NCBI GenBank assembly: GCA_937934115.1
Contig: CALHAH010000011.1
Location: forward strand, 15,948-79,947
Length of the DNA stretch: 64,000 bases
From: an uncultured Thermoanaerobaculum sp.
GTDB lineage: Bacteria > Acidobacteriota > Thermoanaerobaculia > Thermoanaerobaculales > Thermoanaerobaculaceae
Direction: 5' to 3'
A program made the position numbers and the translations under genes. A model generated the notes under the pieces. It was not told the DNA's origin and ran no database searches. It saw nothing but the letters and a program-made list of their open reading frames with translations. Every line of letters starts with the position of its first letter. The stretch's first letter is position 1. Positions 49,940 through 57,488 of the stretch are shown in pieces.

Positions 49940-50818
49940 ATGAAGCGATTGATGGCTTTGATGTTGCTCTTAGGTAGCACGGTCCAAGGGCGGGAGTTGG
50001 CCTCAATGTACGTGGTGCCGGCGGCAGCCAATACCCCTGGGAAAAACGGCACCGATTGGCACACCGATCTCACCTTGGTGAACCCCCATAGCTTTTCTTT
50101 GCCCATCGTTTTGCAGTTCCTGCCCACGGGACGGGACAATCGAGCCGGGGTACCCACCGTCACCTTTGACCTTTACCCTTACGAAAGCTTGAACCTTTGG
50201 GATGTTTTGGGTCCTAATGGGTTTGCCGCTCGTGGTTCTACGGGGGCCCTTTTGGTGGCCGCCGATACGGACAAGGTTTCCTGTCCCTCCAATTCGGCGC
50301 GGTGCCACTTTGTGGTGTTTTCTCGAACCTACACCGTCGGCCCCCTTCCTGGGGAGTTCGGCCAAGCTTTGCCGGGCTTTCCCGTAGGGTGGGGCTTGGA
50401 TAGGTCGGTCCTCGCGTACCTACCACAGCTTTCCAACGACGTGGATTTCCGCACAAACCTGGGAGTGGCGAGCGTAACCAACGACTTCGTGCAGGTGGGC
50501 TACGACGTGCAAGCCGCAGATGGGCGGATCTTGGCACGGGAAAGCACGTGGATTGCCCCGTACGGTCATGCGCAGTGGGCCCTTACCACCGCTGTCACCG
50601 GCGGCAGCGTGGTTTTTTACATCAAGTCCGGTCCGCAAGATGCCATGCTTTTCCCTTACGCCTCGGTGGTCCATCAGCGCACCGGCGATCCCGTGTACGT
50701 GGAAGCGCACATGACGGTGGTGGGGGTCTCGGCCCAGGGGCTTGCCGTCAGGTCTTTAGCAACCAGGCCTGAGCTTCCCCCGCGATTGGAGGTCCCCAGC
50801 TTCCGTTTGCCCCGGTAA
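49940..50818 (+). CDS. secreted hypothetical protein (292 aa)
   Basis: AGGAGG plus ATG 49940. Signal peptide MKRLMALMLLLGSTVQG. Beta-rich composition. No family recognised. Confidence 0.6.
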   Translation: MKRLMALMLLLGSTVQGRELASMYVVPAAANTPGKNGTDWHTDLTLVNPHSFSLPIVLQFLPTGRDNRAGVPTVTFDLYPYESLNLWDVLGPNGFAARGSTGALLVAADTDKVSCPSNSARCHFVVFSRTYTVGPLPGEFGQALPGFPVGWGLDRSVLAYLPQLSNDVDFRTNLGVASVTNDFVQVGYDVQAADGRILARESTWIAPYGHAQWALTTAVTGGSVVFYIKSGPQDAMLFPYASVVHQRTGDPVYVEAHMTVVGVSAQGLAVRSLATRPELPPRLEVPSFRLPR

Positions 50819-50856: not shown

Positions 50857-51978
50857 ATGCTCGCGTCTTCGCGGGTTTTGGTGGTGGAGGACGACGTGGC
50901 CCTGGCCGCAGCGGAAGTGGAGCTTCTGCGGGAGGGGCTGCCCGGGGCTCAGGTTACCGCCGTTCACGATGGCTTGCGGGCTTGGGAGGTGCTGGTAGCG
51001 GACGGTGCCGAGGTGGTGCTTTCCGATGTGGCGCTCCCTGGAATTGATGCTCTTGAGCTTTTGCGGCGTATCCGCGGGGATCATAACCTGGCGACCACGG
51101 CGGTGATCCTGGTGACGGGCGTTATCGCGCCAGAACAACTCTTTTCGCTTTTGGAAAACGGTGCCGATGATTGCCTGGTAAAACCCATCCGCGGCGAGGA
51201 ATTGGTGGCACGTGTGCGGGCAGCGCTGACGCGGGTGGGCCGGCAGCGGCAGTTGGCCGCAAGGGCCCGCGAGCTGGAAGAAAAGTACGCCCGCGCCAGC
51301 GAGTTTTTGTCTTGGGTGTCCCACGAGATCCGCACCCCCCTTTCCGGCCTTATGTCGGCAGCCCACGTACTCAAGCGCTATGGAAGGCAAAGGCCAGAAG
51401 AGGTGGAACGTTTTGCCGAGGTGATTTACCGGGAAGGGCAAAGGCTTACCCGTCTTATCAACAACCTTTTGGACCTCGCCAAAATCGAGGCGGGCGAGGT
51501 GGAATGGCACGTGCAAGAGGTTCCCCTCTGCGAGCTTTTGCTGCACGTGCAGGAGGTTTTCCGCGCCCTCTGCGCTGATCGCTCGCTGCGCTTGCAGCTG
51601 GTGCCTTGTCCTGGGGCCTTTTTGCGGGTAGACGCCGACAAGCTTTCACAGGTGCTTACCAACTTGCTTTCCAACGCCATCAAGCATTCTCCTGAAGGCG
51701 GTATCGTGAGGCTCGCCTGTACTCGGTCCGAACGGTTCGTGCACATTGCCGTGGAAGACCAAGGTCCGGGGGTTCCCCCTGGGATGGAGGAGGTGATTTT
51801 CCAGCGCTTCCGTCAACTGGATCTCACCGACGAAAAGAGCGGCACCGGTTTGGGGCTAGCCATCTCACGGGAGATCGTGACGCGCTTGGGAGGGCGCATT
51901 TGGGTGGAGCGTTCCGCTTTGGGTGGTGCGCGGTTCGTCATTGAGCTGCCCTGTGTGGGCGATGCGGGGTCTTCCTAA
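50857..51978 (+). CDS. hybrid response regulator receiver-histidine kinase
   Basis: REC (VLVVEDD, VVLSDVALPG, LVKP). H-box SHEIRTPLSGL, N-box LLSNAIKHS, G1 DQGPGV, G2 GTGLGLAI. Confidence 0.9.
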   Translation: MLASSRVLVVEDDVALAAAEVELLREGLPGAQVTAVHDGLRAWEVLVADGAEVVLSDVALPGIDALELLRRIRGDHNLATTAVILVTGVIAPEQLFSLLENGADDCLVKPIRGEELVARVRAALTRVGRQRQLAARARELEEKYARASEFLSWVSHEIRTPLSGLMSAAHVLKRYGRQRPEEVERFAEVIYREGQRLTRLINNLLDLAKIEAGEVEWHVQEVPLCELLLHVQEVFRALCADRSLRLQLVPCPGAFLRVDADKLSQVLTNLLSNAIKHSPEGGIVRLACTRSERFVHIAVEDQGPGVPPGMEEVIFQRFRQLDLTDEKSGTGLGLAISREIVTRLGGRIWVERSALGGARFVIELPCVGDAGSS

Positions 51979-51979
51979 G

Positions 51980-54142
51980 ATGGTTCAGTTCGATAACCAG
52001 TACCGCCAAGTCAAACTTAAGATCGTGTACTACGGGCCTGCCCTGGGTGGGAAAACCACGTGCTTACAGTACATCCACCGGGTCACCGATCCGCAGCGCC
52101 GCACCCGCCTGTACACCTTGAACACCGCATCCGACCGCACGTTGTTTTTTGACCTCTTGGGGTTAGATTTAGGCCGGATTCGCGGTTACCGCTTAACCGT
52201 TCAGCTGTTCACGGTGCCCGGCCAAGTGCAGTACAACACCACGCGGCGGGCAGTGCTTTCCGGGGCTGACGGTGTGGTTTTCGTGGCCGATTCCCAGGCG
52301 GGTCAGGAAAAGGCCAACCTGGAGTCCCTGCAAAACCTTCAAGAAAACCTGCGAGCCAACGGCTTGGATCCCGAAACCATCCCGCTGGTTTTTCAGTACA
52401 ACAAGCGGGATTTGCCTAAGATCTTGTCGCGGGCAGACCTTGACCGCTTGCTCAACCCCAAGGGGTACCCGGTTTTCGAAACCGTGGCCACCACGGGACA
52501 AGGTGTGCTTGAGGCCTTTGCGGCCATTTGTGAGGCTACGGTGCTGTCGGTGGCTGATCGCTTGGGCATTACCGCTCAGGCGGATGCGCTCACGCGCTTG
52601 GTGGCCAACGTGCGTGCCGCCATGGCGCCTTTGATCCCAAAGAAACCCCCGGAAGTGGAAGCGCCGGTGGTGATTCGTACAGGCGGCGAAGGACAGCTGG
52701 GGCCGGAAGAGCTGGCGGCCGAGGCTGTGCGGGCTAACGCCGCCATGGCCGATCTCTCCGCACGGTTGGACCAGCTCTCCAAACAGCTTTCCCGACGGGT
52801 GGAGGAGTTACGGGCCCTCTTGGTGTTTTCTCAGGTGCTTAGCCAAGCGCGGGAGCCCGATGAGGTCACTACCGCTTTTTTCGAGCGGTTTTTGGTGGAC
52901 ATGAGGGTTACCGCCGGCACGTTGATCTTGGAAAACCCCAAGGGAGAGCTCGTGGAGGTTCTGCGCCGGGGCTTAGCCGCGGAGCCTTTGATGCGGCAAA
53001 GCCTGCAAGGAGAGGTGCCGGCGCGAGCGATTCTCCAGGGCCGGCAAGCGTTTCGCTTGGATGTAAGCGAGCTGGCACCGGGTCAAAGCCGGGAGCCTTG
53101 GATCGAAGAGGTCCGGGGCTTGGGGTTTGAGCACTTTTTGGCGGTGCCGCTGGTGGTGCAGGATCGGGCCTGGGGATTGGTAACCGCCTATGGAGAAGCG
53201 ACTCGCGGAGCTTTCCAAGACGAGGATTTAGAGCTGGCCGCCATCATGGGAGCGGTGGGGGCCGTGGCTATTGCCAACGCTCGCGCTTGGCATTCCCTGG
53301 AGCAAGTGAACCGCAATTTGGAAAGCTTGGTGGCGGCCCGCACCGGCGAGCTCCAGCAAGCGCTGACCAGGGCCGAGGCGCTGGCCAAAGAGCTTTCAGC
53401 CAAGAACCAAGAGCTGGAGGCCGCCTACCGCCGCCTGGCGGAACTGGATCGGCTCAAGGGCGAGTTGCTGCGACGGGTAGCCCACGAGTTCAACACCCCA
53501 GTGACGGCCATTCAAACCGCGGCGCGCATCCTCACCCGTTGGGATCAAATTCCCAAGGAAAAGGTGAACAACTTTGTGGGGATCGTGGTGGAAGAAGCCT
53601 CACGGCTTGGCGATCTCATTGCCTCGGCTTTGCAGGCGGCGGCGCTGAGCTTGCCCCAGGAAGTGGAGGAAAAGACCGCGGTGGCGGTGGCGGATCTCCT
53701 GCGGCAAGCGTTGGCGCCCGTCAAAGGAGAGGTGGCCGATCGGCAAATCAAGATGGCGGTGAAGGTGGCTTCTGGCTTGGAGAAGGTGGTGTGTTTTCCG
53801 CAGGCTTTGACGGCGGCGTTAACCGCACTTCTGAGAAACGCGGTGGAGTTCAACCAGCCCCAGGGGAGTGTCACGGTAACCGTCTTGCCAGTGCGCAAAG
53901 CAGGGCAAAGCTTTGTGGAGTTTCGGGTAGAGGACACCGGGGTGGGTATTTCCCCGGAGGACCTCCCCCAAGTTACCGAGCCCTTTTTCCAGGGAGGGAA
54001 CCTCCTCACCAGCAAACCCAAGGGCCTGGGGTTGGGGTTGGCGGTAGCCAAAAGGGTGGCGGAGCTGCACGGGGGGACGTTGGAGATCGTTTCGCAACCG
54101 GGGCAAGGAACCACGGTGAGCTTGCGGATAGCGGTGGGTTGA
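51980..54142 (+). CDS. MglA-like small GTPase domain fused to GAF-histidine kinase (720 aa)
   Basis: N-terminus: KIVYYGPALGGKTT (P-loop), SDRTLFFD (switch I), TVPGQ (switch II), VFVADSQ and QYNKRD (G4). A helical linker, a GAF-like module, H-box VAHEFNTPVTAI, N-box LLRNAVEFN, G1 DTGVGI and G2 GLGLGLAV follow. The ATG lies 1 nt after the upstream stop. Confidence 0.9.
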   Translation: MVQFDNQYRQVKLKIVYYGPALGGKTTCLQYIHRVTDPQRRTRLYTLNTASDRTLFFDLLGLDLGRIRGYRLTVQLFTVPGQVQYNTTRRAVLSGADGVVFVADSQAGQEKANLESLQNLQENLRANGLDPETIPLVFQYNKRDLPKILSRADLDRLLNPKGYPVFETVATTGQGVLEAFAAICEATVLSVADRLGITAQADALTRLVANVRAAMAPLIPKKPPEVEAPVVIRTGGEGQLGPEELAAEAVRANAAMADLSARLDQLSKQLSRRVEELRALLVFSQVLSQAREPDEVTTAFFERFLVDMRVTAGTLILENPKGELVEVLRRGLAAEPLMRQSLQGEVPARAILQGRQAFRLDVSELAPGQSREPWIEEVRGLGFEHFLAVPLVVQDRAWGLVTAYGEATRGAFQDEDLELAAIMGAVGAVAIANARAWHSLEQVNRNLESLVAARTGELQQALTRAEALAKELSAKNQELEAAYRRLAELDRLKGELLRRVAHEFNTPVTAIQTAARILTRWDQIPKEKVNNFVGIVVEEASRLGDLIASALQAAALSLPQEVEEKTAVAVADLLRQALAPVKGEVADRQIKMAVKVASGLEKVVCFPQALTAALTALLRNAVEFNQPQGSVTVTVLPVRKAGQSFVEFRVEDTGVGISPEDLPQVTEPFFQGGNLLTSKPKGLGLGLAVAKRVAELHGGTLEIVSQPGQGTTVSLRIAVG

Positions 54143-54143
54143 C

Positions 54144-54521
54144 GTGCCGGACGTGCTGGTGGTGGATGACGAGCCTGCCATTCGGGAGACCCTCTCCTTC
54201 ATCCTGGAGATGGAGGGTTTTACCGTGGATGTGGCGGTGGACGGCGAACAGGCGCTGGCCAAGGTGCGGGAAACGCACCCGCGGGTTGTGCTTTTGGACG
54301 TGATGATGCCGAAAAAGGACGGTTACCGAGTGTGCGAGGCAATCAAGGATGACCCGCAAACCGCCGCCACCAAGGTGGTTATTCTCACGGCCATGGGTCA
54401 AGCTGCGGATCGTGCCCGCGCCGTTGCGCTGGGGGCGGATGCTTACATTTCCAAACCCTTTGATGAGGACAGCTTGATTGTCCTACTTCGCAAGCTTATG
54501 GCGGAGGGACCCAGTGCTTGA
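54144..54521 (+). CDS. single-domain response regulator (CheY-like)
   Basis: VLVVDDEP, VVLLDVMMP, ILTA, ISKPF. The GTG lies 1 nt after the upstream stop. Confidence 0.92.
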   Translation: MPDVLVVDDEPAIRETLSFILEMEGFTVDVAVDGEQALAKVRETHPRVVLLDVMMPKKDGYRVCEAIKDDPQTAATKVVILTAMGQAADRARAVALGADAYISKPFDEDSLIVLLRKLMAEGPSA

Positions 54522-55398
54522 ACTGGGGGTGCTCACCGCCACCCCCAGCTTGCCCATATACCAGGAGCTGGTGCAGCAGGGATCCCAGCTGGGGGTGTTG
54601 GTGCACCTGTGGGATGCCACCCGCATGGTGGCACAGGTGCCGGGAGGGGTTGCCCTCGAGGGTCAACCCTTGGCCGTGGAGCGGGTACCTGTTTTCCTCC
54701 CGCGGGTGGGGAATTGGCGTCCGGAGTCCATTTTGGCTTTGGTCACGGCGCTGGAGCGGCAAGGGTGCGTCCCCTGCAACCGCCCGGAGGCCATTCGCCT
54801 GGGCCGTGATCACCTGCGCACCGTGGAAAGGTTGAGCCTTGCGGGCATCCCTCACCCGCAAACTGTGGCCGGAAGCGACCCCCTGGTCTTGGCGGAGGCG
54901 GCCCGGGCGTTGGGTTTTCCGGTGGTGGTGAAGGTCCGCCGCTCCCGTCAAGGTGTGGGCGTGATCCGCTGTGGCTCGTTGCCCGAGCTAGAAGCGGTGC
55001 TGGATGCCCTCTTCCGCTTGGGCGAGGAGGTGGTGGTGCAGCGCTTTTGTCCCCCTGGCGGTGAGAGCTTCCGGGCGTTGGTGCTCCAGGGATCGGTGCT
55101 CGGGGTAACCCGCCACCGGGCGCAGGAGGGCGAGTTTCGCACCAACGCCGCCCGCGGCGGGGTGGTGGAGCCTTGGCCCGCGGACGCAAAGCTTCATTCT
55201 CTCGCTGTCGCCGCAGCCACAGCTTGCGGTCTTGGCTTTTGCGGGGTGGACCTTTGGCCCGACGGGGAGCAACTGGTGGTGGGCGAGGTCAACCCGACCC
55301 CTGGATGGAAACACTTTGCCCGGGCTACGGGTCTACCGGTGGCTCGCCTGCTGGTGGAGGCGTTAATAGCCCAGGCGCGAGGGCAGGGGGACCGGTGA
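54514..55398 (+). CDS. rimK: RimK-family ATP-grasp alpha-L-glutamate ligase
   Basis: FPVVVKVRRSRQGVGV and the GEFRTNAARGG signature, then GVDLWPDGEQLVVGEVNPTPG. GTG 54514 overlaps the response regulator stop by 8 nt. Confidence 0.82.
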   Translation: MLELGVLTATPSLPIYQELVQQGSQLGVLVHLWDATRMVAQVPGGVALEGQPLAVERVPVFLPRVGNWRPESILALVTALERQGCVPCNRPEAIRLGRDHLRTVERLSLAGIPHPQTVAGSDPLVLAEAARALGFPVVVKVRRSRQGVGVIRCGSLPELEAVLDALFRLGEEVVVQRFCPPGGESFRALVLQGSVLGVTRHRAQEGEFRTNAARGGVVEPWPADAKLHSLAVAAATACGLGFCGVDLWPDGEQLVVGEVNPTPGWKHFARATGLPVARLLVEALIAQARGQGDR

Positions 55399-56570: not shown

Positions 56571-56599
56571 TTGACACCTTGGGGGGGCTCGTTTAGATT
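56571..56599 (+). promoter_or_regulatory. sigma-70 promoter for tRNA-Gly
   Basis: TTGACA (56571-76), 17 nt spacer, TAGATT (56594-99), about 27 nt upstream of the tRNA 5' end. Confidence 0.55.
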
Positions 56600-56625: not shown

Positions 56626-56701
56626 GCGGGCATAACTCAGCTGGTAGAGTGTCAGCTTCCCAAGCTGAAAGTCGCGGGTTCGAATCCCGTTGCCCGCTCC
56701 A
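56626..56701 (+). tRNA. tRNA-Gly (anticodon CCC), CCA encoded
   Basis: Manual cloverleaf. Acceptor GCGGGCA/TGCCCGC, D arm AACTCAGCTGGTAGAGT, anticodon stem TCAGC/GCTGA with loop TTCCCAA, T arm GCGGG-TTCGAAT-CCCGT, discriminator T, then CCA. Confidence 0.95.
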
Positions 56702-56716
56702 TTTTTGGAGGTTCCT

Positions 56717-57118
56717 GTGGCTGGCCTGGTTCGTGAGCATCCCCATGAAGCCCGTTTTGTAGCAGGTTCCACCGTAATTGCCAAGGATTCGCGCCTGAAG
56801 GGTGAGTTAGCAGGCACCGCTGGGGTGCGTATCGAAGGGCAGGTGGAGGGCAACGTAACCGTGGACGGGCCGGTGGAAGTGGCGGAAGGTGCCAAGGTGC
56901 AAGGGGAAATCAAGGGGCGAACCGTAAAAGTGGCCGGGGAGGTGGTGGGTAACGTCCACGCCTTGCAGCTTGTAGAGCTTTTGGCCTCGGGTTCGGTCAA
57001 GGGCGATCTTTTCACCCCCTCCTTGCACGTGGTTGAGGGTGCTCACCTGGAGGGGCAAGTCCACATGGAAGCCCGACCACAGGCTTCGGCTTCGCAACCG
57101 CCACGAGCCAAGTCTTGA
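56717..57118 (+). CDS. bactofilin (polymer-forming cytoskeletal protein, DUF583)
   Basis: Beta-helical repeat pattern (VIAKDSRLKGELAGTAGVRIEGQVEGNVTVDGPVEVAEGAKVQGEIKGRTVKVAGEVVGNV...). GGAGG lies 5 nt before GTG 56717. The earlier track start would overlap the tRNA. Confidence 0.88.
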   Translation: MAGLVREHPHEARFVAGSTVIAKDSRLKGELAGTAGVRIEGQVEGNVTVDGPVEVAEGAKVQGEIKGRTVKVAGEVVGNVHALQLVELLASGSVKGDLFTPSLHVVEGAHLEGQVHMEARPQASASQPPRAKS

Positions 57119-57188: not shown

Positions 57189-57488
57189 ATGGCCGCCGAA
57201 GCGTCCACCGAGGTGGAAATTTACGGGCGACGCTACCGTTTGCGGTCTACCCACGAGGGCAGCGATATCGAGAAGCTGGCCGCCTTTGTGGATCGCCGTA
57301 TGCGGCAGTTGGCGCAGCACCTACCGCAGGTGGATGCCGCGAAGCTTGCGGTTTTGGCGGCACTGAATATCGCGGAAGAGCTTTTCCGCGAGCAAGACAC
57401 GGATCCTGGTACGCGGACCGAGAAGATTCGGGAGCGTGTGGAAGGGTTGATTGCAAAGCTTGACGCTGTTTTGGGGGCCTCGCCATGA
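57189..57488 (+). CDS. zapA: cell division protein ZapA
   Basis: 99 aa. VEIYGRRYRLRS...FVDRRMRQLA...KLAVLAALNIAEELF is the ZapA pattern. Confidence 0.85.
   Translation: MAAEASTEVEIYGRRYRLRSTHEGSDIEKLAAFVDRRMRQLAQHLPQVDAAKLAVLAALNIAEELFREQDTDPGTRTEKIRERVEGLIAKLDAVLGASP

Follow-up and report, generated by a model that had tools for sequence, protein, structure and literature searches.

An MglA-type GTPase domain at the head of a GAF-histidine kinase in Thermoanaerobaculum, one member of a modular signalling class

Results

A GTPase domain and a histidine kinase in one reading frame

A 64,000-nucleotide stretch of DNA from an uncultured Thermoanaerobaculum sp. (assembly GCA_937934115.1, contig CALHAH010000011.1, positions 15,948 to 79,947 of the forward strand), which was analysed as a whole and is called the window below (G+C content approx. 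61%), carries a gene in which a Ras-like GTPase domain of the MglA type and a GAF-containing histidine kinase (HK) are fused. The frame is open on the forward strand between 51923 and 54142, and from the ATG at 51980 to the TGA stop at 54140-54142 it encodes 720 amino acids (aa) without an internal stop. The start at ATG 51980 could be fixed because the N-terminal hexapeptide MVQFDN is invariant in 31 homologues; one public annotation (P0001, 726 aa) starts 6 codons further upstream. The gene and its modules are listed below, together with the evidence used for each of them.

51980..54142, forward strand: MglA-GAF-histidine kinase fusion gene, 720 aa (uninterrupted open reading frame, full-length homologues)
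51980..52561, forward strand: Group 1 MglA-type G domain, aa 1-194 (match to PDB structures, Foldseek, invariant motifs)
52562..52702, forward strand: helix, aa 201-218, followed by a disordered Pro-rich tether, aa 219-241 (AlphaFold, conservation)
52703..52855, forward strand: long helix leading into the GAF domain, aa 242-289 (AlphaFold secondary structure)
52856..53218, forward strand: GAF sensor domain, aa 293-413 (Pfam, alpha/beta fold with pLDDT 85-93)
53219..53644, forward strand: signalling helix continuous with helix alpha-1 of the dimerisation and histidine phosphotransfer (DHp) domain, aa 414-518, and DHp alpha-2, aa 526-555 (Pfam HisKA, model)
53675..54139, forward strand: catalytic ATP-binding (CA) domain, aa 566-720 (Pfam, invariant boxes, Foldseek)

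A sequence-only reading of the same DNA had described one uninterrupted 720-aa open reading frame (ORF) and had quoted ten motifs from it, all of which were found in frame: KIVYYGPALGGKTT at aa 14-27, SDRTLFFD at 51-58, TVPGQ at 78-82, GVVFVADSQ at 98-106, QYNKRDLP at 139-146, FLAVPLVVQDRAWGLVTAY at 386-404, VAHEFNTPVTAI at 500-511, LLRNAVEFN at 617-625, DTGVGI at 652-657 and GLGLGLAV at 682-689. Its proposal that the GTPase is followed in the same ORF by a GAF module and a complete HisKA transmitter was also borne out, since the Pfam matches were above their thresholds: GAF_2 at residues 291-431 (35.5 bits, cut-off 28.6), GAF (34.5 bits, cut-off 22.4), HisKA at 493-553 (39.2 bits, cut-off 26.9) and HATPase_c at 608-717 (E=3.2e-24, 86 bits). 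The phospho-acceptor His502 lies in the sequence HEFNTP, of which H502, E503, N505, T506 and P507 are invariant in the 31-member alignment. The CA domain has its N-box (N620), G1 (D652xGxG656) and G2 (G682xGLG686) boxes with invariant box residues, and the C-terminal part of the modelled protein matched HK853-type kinases in Foldseek. No hydrophobic stretch of sufficient length for a membrane span was present in the whole 720-aa sequence, thus the protein is expected to be soluble and should be cytoplasmic.

The G domain belongs to Group 1 of the MglA family

The first 207 residues were compared with solved structures. M. xanthus MglA was matched with E=1.3e-53 and T. thermophilus MglA with 2.9e-49, as against 1e-7 for Rab27B, the next-best family in the same search, so that the N-terminus is of the MglA type, as had been read from its motifs. 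It is collinear with M. xanthus MglA over residues 7-187, where 88 of 181 positions (49%) are identical, and the modelled domain could be superimposed on MglA structures by Foldseek with template modelling (TM) scores of 0.88-0.93 and a root-mean-square deviation of 1.8 Å, the TM score for 6hjo being 0.93. Profile searches said less about this part of the protein: Pfam gave just a weak Arf match (26.4 bits) for the N-terminus, and NCBIfam gave merely a generic kinase similarity for the 720-aa protein.

Group 1 MglA proteins are defined by an intrinsic Arg adjoining the G2 threonine and by a G3 motif that reads TVPGQ (PMC4316618). In the fusion, switch I (D52-R53-T54) includes the intrinsic Arg next to the G2 Thr and G3 is T78VPGQ82; the P-loop G19-T26 reads GPALGGKT and G4 is N141KRD144. 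The N-terminus thus has all the sequence and fold characters of Group 1 MglA, and the motifs for GTP binding and hydrolysis are, judged by their sequence, intact. The intrinsic Arg was found in 120 of 120 close and in 19 of 20 divergent HK fusions, and TVPGQ in all 140 of the HK-fused sequences tallied. No further MglA-type domain occurs in the 64-kb window.

One residue of the P-loop deserves separate mention. Codon 21 (52040-52042) encodes Ala at the position equivalent to Ras G12 and MglA G21. According to work on Ras G12 and on MglA G21V, a side chain at this position hinders stimulated (GAP-type, that is, GTPase-activating protein-dependent) hydrolysis. Ala occupies the position in 17 of the 20 divergent and in 69 of the 120 close fusions; in other extended MglA proteins it is Gly in 92 of 120. 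A fixed Gly-to-Ala exchange was considered as a signature of the fused form and rejected, as the residue alternates among Ala, Gly and Ser and Ala is enriched only. Ala21 would fit an absence of MglB; since the position is not fixed, it is taken as a lead only.

The fusion is conserved as a unit

When 5.8 billion proteins were searched, the matches formed more than 120 clusters (90% identity) of 718-735 aa, which are 57-100% identical, have the identical layout and come, where the source is named, from Thermoanaerobaculum, Thermoanaerobaculaceae or Acidobacteriota. The cluster at 93% identity includes a protein of the cultured type strain of T. aquaticum (WP_081800069.1, locus EG19_06050) as well as one from a 2.76-Mb contig of a metagenome-assembled genome (MAG). 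The fusion gene is therefore real and not a frameshift product; the worry, raised in the earlier reading, that a frameshift falsely joins two genes is removed by the conservation of the layout, which more than 120 clusters share and which an isolate genome has as well. Members of the 93% cluster are annotated merely as hypothetical protein, histidine kinase or ATP-binding protein, and automated annotations of fusion homologues do pick up both halves, as in one JGI name.

The alignment of 31 members (56-100% identity) left the following residues invariant: G19, G24-K25-T26, D52-R53-T54, T78-Q82 and N141-D144 in the G domain, and H502-E503, N620, D652xGxG656 and G682xGLG686 in the kinase. Since the catalytic residues of both enzymes are invariant, both activities look to be under purifying selection. 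The modules differ in their conservation. The G domain is the most conserved, with 77% mean identity and 39% invariant columns, compared with 21% invariant columns in the CA domain; the GAF domain is variable (51%), and the tether is the least conserved part, with 37% identity and not a single invariant column.

The full-length AlphaFold model of the fusion had a mean predicted local distance difference test (pLDDT) value of 77 and a predicted TM (pTM) score of 0.36, while a model of residues 1-445 reached pTM 0.49 and had its low-confidence parts in the switch regions. In the tether, pLDDT fell below 50 at residues 224-239. The helix that follows (aa 242-289) is probably a dimeric coiled coil.

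A large modular class of MglA-headed proteins

The G domain alone was used in a HMMER search of 1.84 billion representative proteins, which gave 1908 matches below 1e-30. The best 150 of these 1908 are all longer than free MglA (211-796 aa), some of them may be gene fragments cut at contig ends, and the G domain nearly always stands at the extreme N-terminus. Pfam was run on 91 of the best 150 and found HATPase_c in 17 and GAF in 23, while low-complexity tails, Pro-rich or acidic, are present in most of the rest. The MglA-GAF-HK layout, with 697-759 aa, is seen in about 20 clusters at 50% identity. At the level of loci, the 80 best were surveyed with one genome per species. None of these encodes a free MglA of approx. 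195 aa, and the shortest proteins are split forms of 232-262 aa. The sequence-only reading had stated that MglA-family proteins are normally free-standing, and this does not apply to the present branch, in which the best 150 relatives and the 80 species-level loci all have longer proteins. The picture of a lone oddity has likewise to be replaced by that of a large modular class, with the following architectures (PAS, a sensor domain; REC, receiver).

MglA-GAF-HK: Thermoanaerobaculia, a Holophagae MAG (L009), Polarisedimenticolaceae, Sulfomarinibacteraceae and a Sulfotelmatobacter MAG
MglA-PAS-HK-REC, approx. 785-806 aa: about 25 Holophagae loci, assigned by ORF length and linker sequence
MglA-PAS-HK: L076 and L079
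MglA-GAF without a further domain: L025 and L029
MglA with a weak DHp-like region: Vicinamibacteria group
Split mglA-like and PocR-HK gene pairs: L020 10001-12124, L024 10001-12157, L054 2985-5233, L083 6001-8177 and L084 6001-8213

The MglA-PAS-HK-REC form was confirmed by Pfam in Holophaga foetida DSM 6591, Geothrix fermentans DSM 14018 and G. oryzisoli SG189.

The split pairs come from five independent Myxococcota or "Deltaproteobacteria" MAG loci, in which an mglA-like gene abuts or overlaps a PocR-HisKA-HATPase_c gene downstream of it. The GTPases of these five loci have 232-240 aa and belong to a large family (232-250 aa) of more than 120 clusters, named "mglA2" in one source. In two Modulibacteria loci (L045, L050) a REC-GAF-HK gene is followed by an mglA-like gene. 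Such split pairs are Rosetta-stone arrangements and argue for a functional partnership of GTPase and kinase.

A single origin of the GTPase-kinase pair followed by the swapping of sensors was considered and is not supported, because the kinase cores resemble each other no more closely than unrelated kinases do. The cores of the variants are 27-31% identical to each other, which equals their identity with the unrelated REC-HK encoded next to the fusion, and that of Geothrix is even of a different subfamily. Across the same variants the G domains are 45-55% identical, and in a rough neighbour-joining tree without support values all kinase-associated G domains fell into one subtree, apart from other extended MglA types. 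The constant partner is therefore the G domain and not a particular kinase, and an MglA-type G domain has been combined more than once with different kinases and sensors. On the strength of these comparisons, the GTPase-kinase pairing is modular and recurrent, and at least three phyla have it, either fused or as adjacent genes. The fusion thereby takes its place in a large class of signalling proteins headed by MglA, which is uncatalogued and concentrated in Acidobacteriota.

Some of the extended MglA proteins met in the survey have other layouts. In Vicinamibacteria MAGs (L031 10001-11671 and L036 4539-6047), proteins of 503-557 aa have the MglA-type G domain and a conserved linker (NLKEKGLDP...) and give at most a sub-threshold HisKA-like match, without HATPase_c; they may be kinase-dead relatives or may have a different effector. 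The proteins P0155 (619 aa) and P0179 (796 aa) and about 12 related clusters carry the G domain, a very long Glu/Asp/Ser-rich acidic tail and a short conserved C-terminal helical region, and they are a separate, unannotated class of extended MglA proteins. A second MglA paralogue of the genus is encoded in Thermoanaerobaculum sp. MAG25 (L078 10001-11290, 429 aa), between a glycogen synthase and a LysM/SLT gene and with no adjoining MglB. Its P-loop reads GPGLCGKT, its G domain is nearer to canonical MglA than that of the fusion, and behind it come a linker rich in Pro and Ala and, at the C-terminus, some 100 aa without a Pfam match.

The operon and its neighbours

Three neighbouring genes stand in the same orientation as the fusion.

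49940..50818, forward strand: upstream neighbour, a protein of approx. 292 aa whose N-terminus resembles a signal peptide (MKRLMALMLLLGSTVQG)
50857..51978, forward strand: REC-HisKA-HATPase_c hybrid kinase, 373 aa, upstream partner (Pfam, junction)
54144..54521, forward strand: single-domain response-regulator receiver, 125 aa, downstream partner (Pfam Response_reg, E=1.4e-30)

The TAA stop of the hybrid kinase ends 1 nucleotide before the ATG of the fusion and the GTG of the receiver begins 1 nucleotide past its stop; judged by these junctions, the fusion gene is translationally coupled on both sides. The receiver has the canonical residues D8/D9, D52, T82 and K104. An exact look-up of the 720-aa protein gave no record, and its genomic context was therefore compared in relatives. 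The same cassette of REC-HK, fusion and receiver is present in the relatives L001-L003, L010 and L085. In two relatives of approx. 60% identity (L001 12184-13701 and L002 12181-13656) a GAF-SpoIIE gene, encoding a PP2C phosphatase, lies between the fusion and the receiver; the window lacks this gene and has the receiver immediately after the fusion. In the more distant fusions of L016, L018, L019, L021 and L023 a stand-alone receiver gene lies immediately upstream. No DNA-binding output is encoded in the fusion operon, and promoter-like and terminator-like motifs around the fusion were no commoner than in shuffled sequence.

The most persistent neighbour is the 292-aa protein, which is encoded upstream of the fusion or of the REC-HK in 13 of 26 loci. 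It had no Pfam match and no relative among the solved structures in the PDB, and it is only a possible member of the system.

In most close relatives the signalling cassette has genes for RimK and for a PUA-SAM methyltransferase downstream of it. In the window, the longest RimK-like ATP-grasp ORF (54478-55398, forward strand) overlaps the end of the receiver gene by 44 nucleotides, and the true RimK start is probably further downstream than 54478. The adjacency of RimK and the PUA-methyltransferase is probably inherited synteny, and a functional link of these genes with the fusion was rejected on this ground.

Some 2.5 kb past the fusion, a gene for a bactofilin of 142 aa (56690-57115, forward strand) stands directly upstream of zapA (57189-57485, forward strand) and is preceded by a sigma-70-like site at 56571-56599. 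In M. xanthus the MglA paralogue SofG reportedly works with a bactofilin. A functional link between the fusion and the bactofilin was rejected, as their adjacency is not kept in L001 or L002. A PilX_N gene lies approx. 7 kb from the fusion in L001.

Search for a Roadblock partner

The sequence-only reading saw no Roadblock-like ORF in the 64 kb, and at the sensitivity available this was upheld. Pfam found 14 families on 92 candidate small ORFs of the window, and Robl_LC7 was not among them. A hidden Markov model of MglB and phmmer searches with M. xanthus MglB (100% identical to 6h5b_B) and T. thermophilus MglB as queries were run on six-frame ORFs of the window and of 82 related loci; nothing was found below E=0.1 in this search, which had no positive control and whose sensitivity is thus unproven. 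In five related loci, the precomputed annotations contained no Roadblock gene within 6-10 kb.

Discussion

A proposed nucleotide switch tethered to a two-component kinase

The interpretation that we tentatively favour is that a tethered nucleotide switch gates a two-component kinase, with GTP/GDP as an input beside the GAF input. The protein would be a soluble, presumably dimeric HisKA-type kinase carrying the GTPase on its N-terminus by a flexible tether of about 23 residues. The G domain would act as a nucleotide-state switch which binds reversibly to the kinase module, either in cis or across the dimer, and would in this way gate autophosphorylation or phosphatase activity. The phosphoryl group would then go to one or both of two receivers, the single-domain one encoded next to the fusion and that of the REC-HK hybrid upstream. 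GTP would be hydrolysed with the help of the intrinsic Arg53 and Gln82, and a GAP of the MglB type may be dispensable. This direction, from GTPase to kinase, is favoured because the G domain occupies an N-terminal, input-typical position and receivers are present as outputs, and reversible docking fits better than rigid helical transmission because the tether is disordered and unconserved. Gating between the covalently joined GTPase and kinase, which the sequence-only reading proposed in either direction, is plausible.

Several observations weigh against this interpretation. AlphaFold predicted no fixed interface of the G domain with the GAF domain or the kinase (pTM 0.36 at full length, 0.49 for residues 1-445), and for this reason computation does not decide in which direction information flows. 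No module is as conserved as the G domain, and an equally good reason for this could be that it has conserved external effectors and serves as the output. The closest analogue that has been characterised is the actinobacterial G-protein systems, and the model proposed for these places the kinase upstream of the GTPase. Finally, MglB, RomR or RomX could be encoded elsewhere in the genome.

Some of these points lead to the most serious rival, which we regard as doubtful: information would flow in reverse, so that the G domain exchanges or hydrolyses its nucleotide under the control of the GAF-kinase, of the phosphorylation state of this kinase or of the phosphorylated receivers, and in its GTP form recruits external effectors. 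The action of the Frz receivers on the MglA module of M. xanthus is comparable. The high conservation of the G domain (39% invariant columns as against 21% in CA) is expected of a module with conserved outside partners, and the operon has no DNA-binding output. In the conservons of actinobacteria the kinase has been placed upstream of the GTPase (PMC4316618), and in M. xanthus single-domain receivers and RomR regulate the MglA module (PMC3441718). On the other hand, canonical receivers, adjacent or fused, are an ordinary phosphotransfer output, and it is the conservons that have no response regulator; besides, no conserved effector candidate is encoded nearby, and the N-terminal position of the G domain is typical of inputs.

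It is unlikely, in our judgement, that the proteins constitute an undescribed class of self-contained, MglB-independent, GTPase-gated two-component switches, in which the kinase core or the phosphorylated receiver would be the built-in GAP or guanine nucleotide exchange factor (GEF). The GTPase state would set the kinase output and the whole would form a closed timer or bistable loop, assembled repeatedly with GAF, PAS and PocR modules in Acidobacteriota, Myxococcota and Modulibacteria.

The G domain could also be a targeting device. As a domain like canonical MglA it would obey a polarity system encoded elsewhere (MglB, RomR/RomX) and bring the kinase, its catalysis unregulated, to the cell pole or to a machine such as type IV pili. 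The 49% identity to M. xanthus MglA, with every switch residue intact, and the flexible tether would suit a localisation module; some Acidobacteria have RomR homologues (PMC3441718), and the PilX_N gene of L001 might be counted on this side as well. This is nevertheless quite unlikely, since a Roadblock gene was detected neither in the window nor in the 82 related loci nor in the annotated neighbourhoods, and the nearest relatives of the G domain are all multidomain signalling proteins and not polarity GTPases. Most of the kinase-fused forms, moreover, have at the Ras-G12 position the Ala that would hinder a GAP-type stimulation.

We consider it very unlikely that the G domain is a passive, non-cycling sensor that informs the kinase of the guanine-nucleotide status (the GTP/GDP ratio, perhaps (p)ppGpp). 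Candidates for a GAP or a GEF are not encoded nearby, the residue equivalent to Ras G12 varies among Gly, Ala and Ser, and the N-terminal position is sensor-like, all of which speaks for such a sensor; however, Gln82 is kept in 140 of 140 and Arg53 in 139 of 140 kinase-fused proteins, and both would be needless in a pure binding module. Last, split versions of the GTPase/kinase pair in other phyla might suggest that a sequencing or assembly frameshift wrongly joined an mglA gene and a GAF-kinase gene, which is hardly credible when the same frame of 718-735 aa, free of internal stops and alignable through the linker region across the family, recurs in more than 120 independent clusters, and both a circular MAG and the genome of the T. 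aquaticum isolate have it.

Comparison with known systems

With MglA of M. xanthus (MXAN_1925) and T. thermophilus the fusion shares the Arg finger by the G2 Thr, the TVPGQ motif and the fold (TM 0.93). MglA itself is a free-standing protein of about 195 aa that has the Roadblock GAP MglB as a partner and controls polarity and motility, whereas the domain described here is the N-terminus of a 720-aa kinase with four further modules, has no MglB detected nearby and carries Ala for Gly21. With its 720 aa the fusion falls outside the 150-240 aa given as the size of single-domain Group 1 proteins. SofG, the MglA paralogue of M. xanthus, is likewise a Group 1 protein with sequence beyond the G domain and no known GAP of the MglB type (PMC4316618), but its extensions are short and have no kinase or sensor domain. 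The Frz-RomR-MglA circuit of M. xanthus also has a histidine kinase and receiver proteins which feed the MglA switch (PMC3441718); there the kinase is of the CheA type and the components are many and separate, while in the fusion a classical HisKA kinase and the GTPase form one polypeptide, with two receivers in the operon.

The signalling unit of the conservons (CvnA-D and CvnF) similarly contains an MglA-family GTPase along with a histidine kinase and a GAF module, and the interactions of the partners depend on kinase and GTPase activity. They consist, however, of separate proteins, among them the Roadblock GAP CvnB and the GEF CvnC; their GTPase is of Group 2 (GTPGQ, without the intrinsic Arg), their kinase sits in the membrane, and they lack a response regulator. 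The fusion differs in being covalent and of the Group 1 type, in having receivers, in that neither a Roadblock protein nor CvnC was found, and in its REC-HK/fusion/REC operon in place of cvnA-D. In the ROCO proteins (LRRK2, bacterial Roco) a Ras-like G domain is covalently joined to a kinase and regulates it within the same protein. These have a Roc-COR tandem and a Ser/Thr kinase instead of an MglA-type G domain and a His kinase, and no COR, Roc or Pkinase match was given by Pfam for the 720-aa fusion.

The sequence-only reading knew of no characterised example of this arrangement, and we found no description of an MglA or Ras-like GTPase fused to a histidine kinase in the searchable literature, which misses most subscription journals. 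The 2014 survey of prokaryotic small GTPases by Wuichet and Sogaard-Andersen left out sequences above 240 aa (PMC4316618). A link between GTPases and two-component systems is already known; what is new is the covalent Group 1 form, its breadth and its modularity.

Significance

Small Ras-like GTPases and two-component systems each stand for a major logic of signalling, and in bacteria the two are known to meet only through circuits of many proteins, Frz/RomR/MglA and the conservons. One polypeptide with both enzymes complete would be the simplest system in which the mutual control of a GTPase switch and His-Asp phosphotransfer can be studied, and the split gene pairs of other phyla offer a natural comparison for it. 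Since proteins of this class are carried by cultured strains (T. aquaticum MP-01, Holophaga foetida DSM 6591, Geothrix fermentans DSM 14018 and G. oryzisoli SG189), direct testing is feasible. For the family as a whole, the current catalogue of prokaryotic MglA proteins, which stops at 240 aa, leaves out a large branch of multidomain proteins, and in the Acidobacteriota sampled this branch appears to be the rule.

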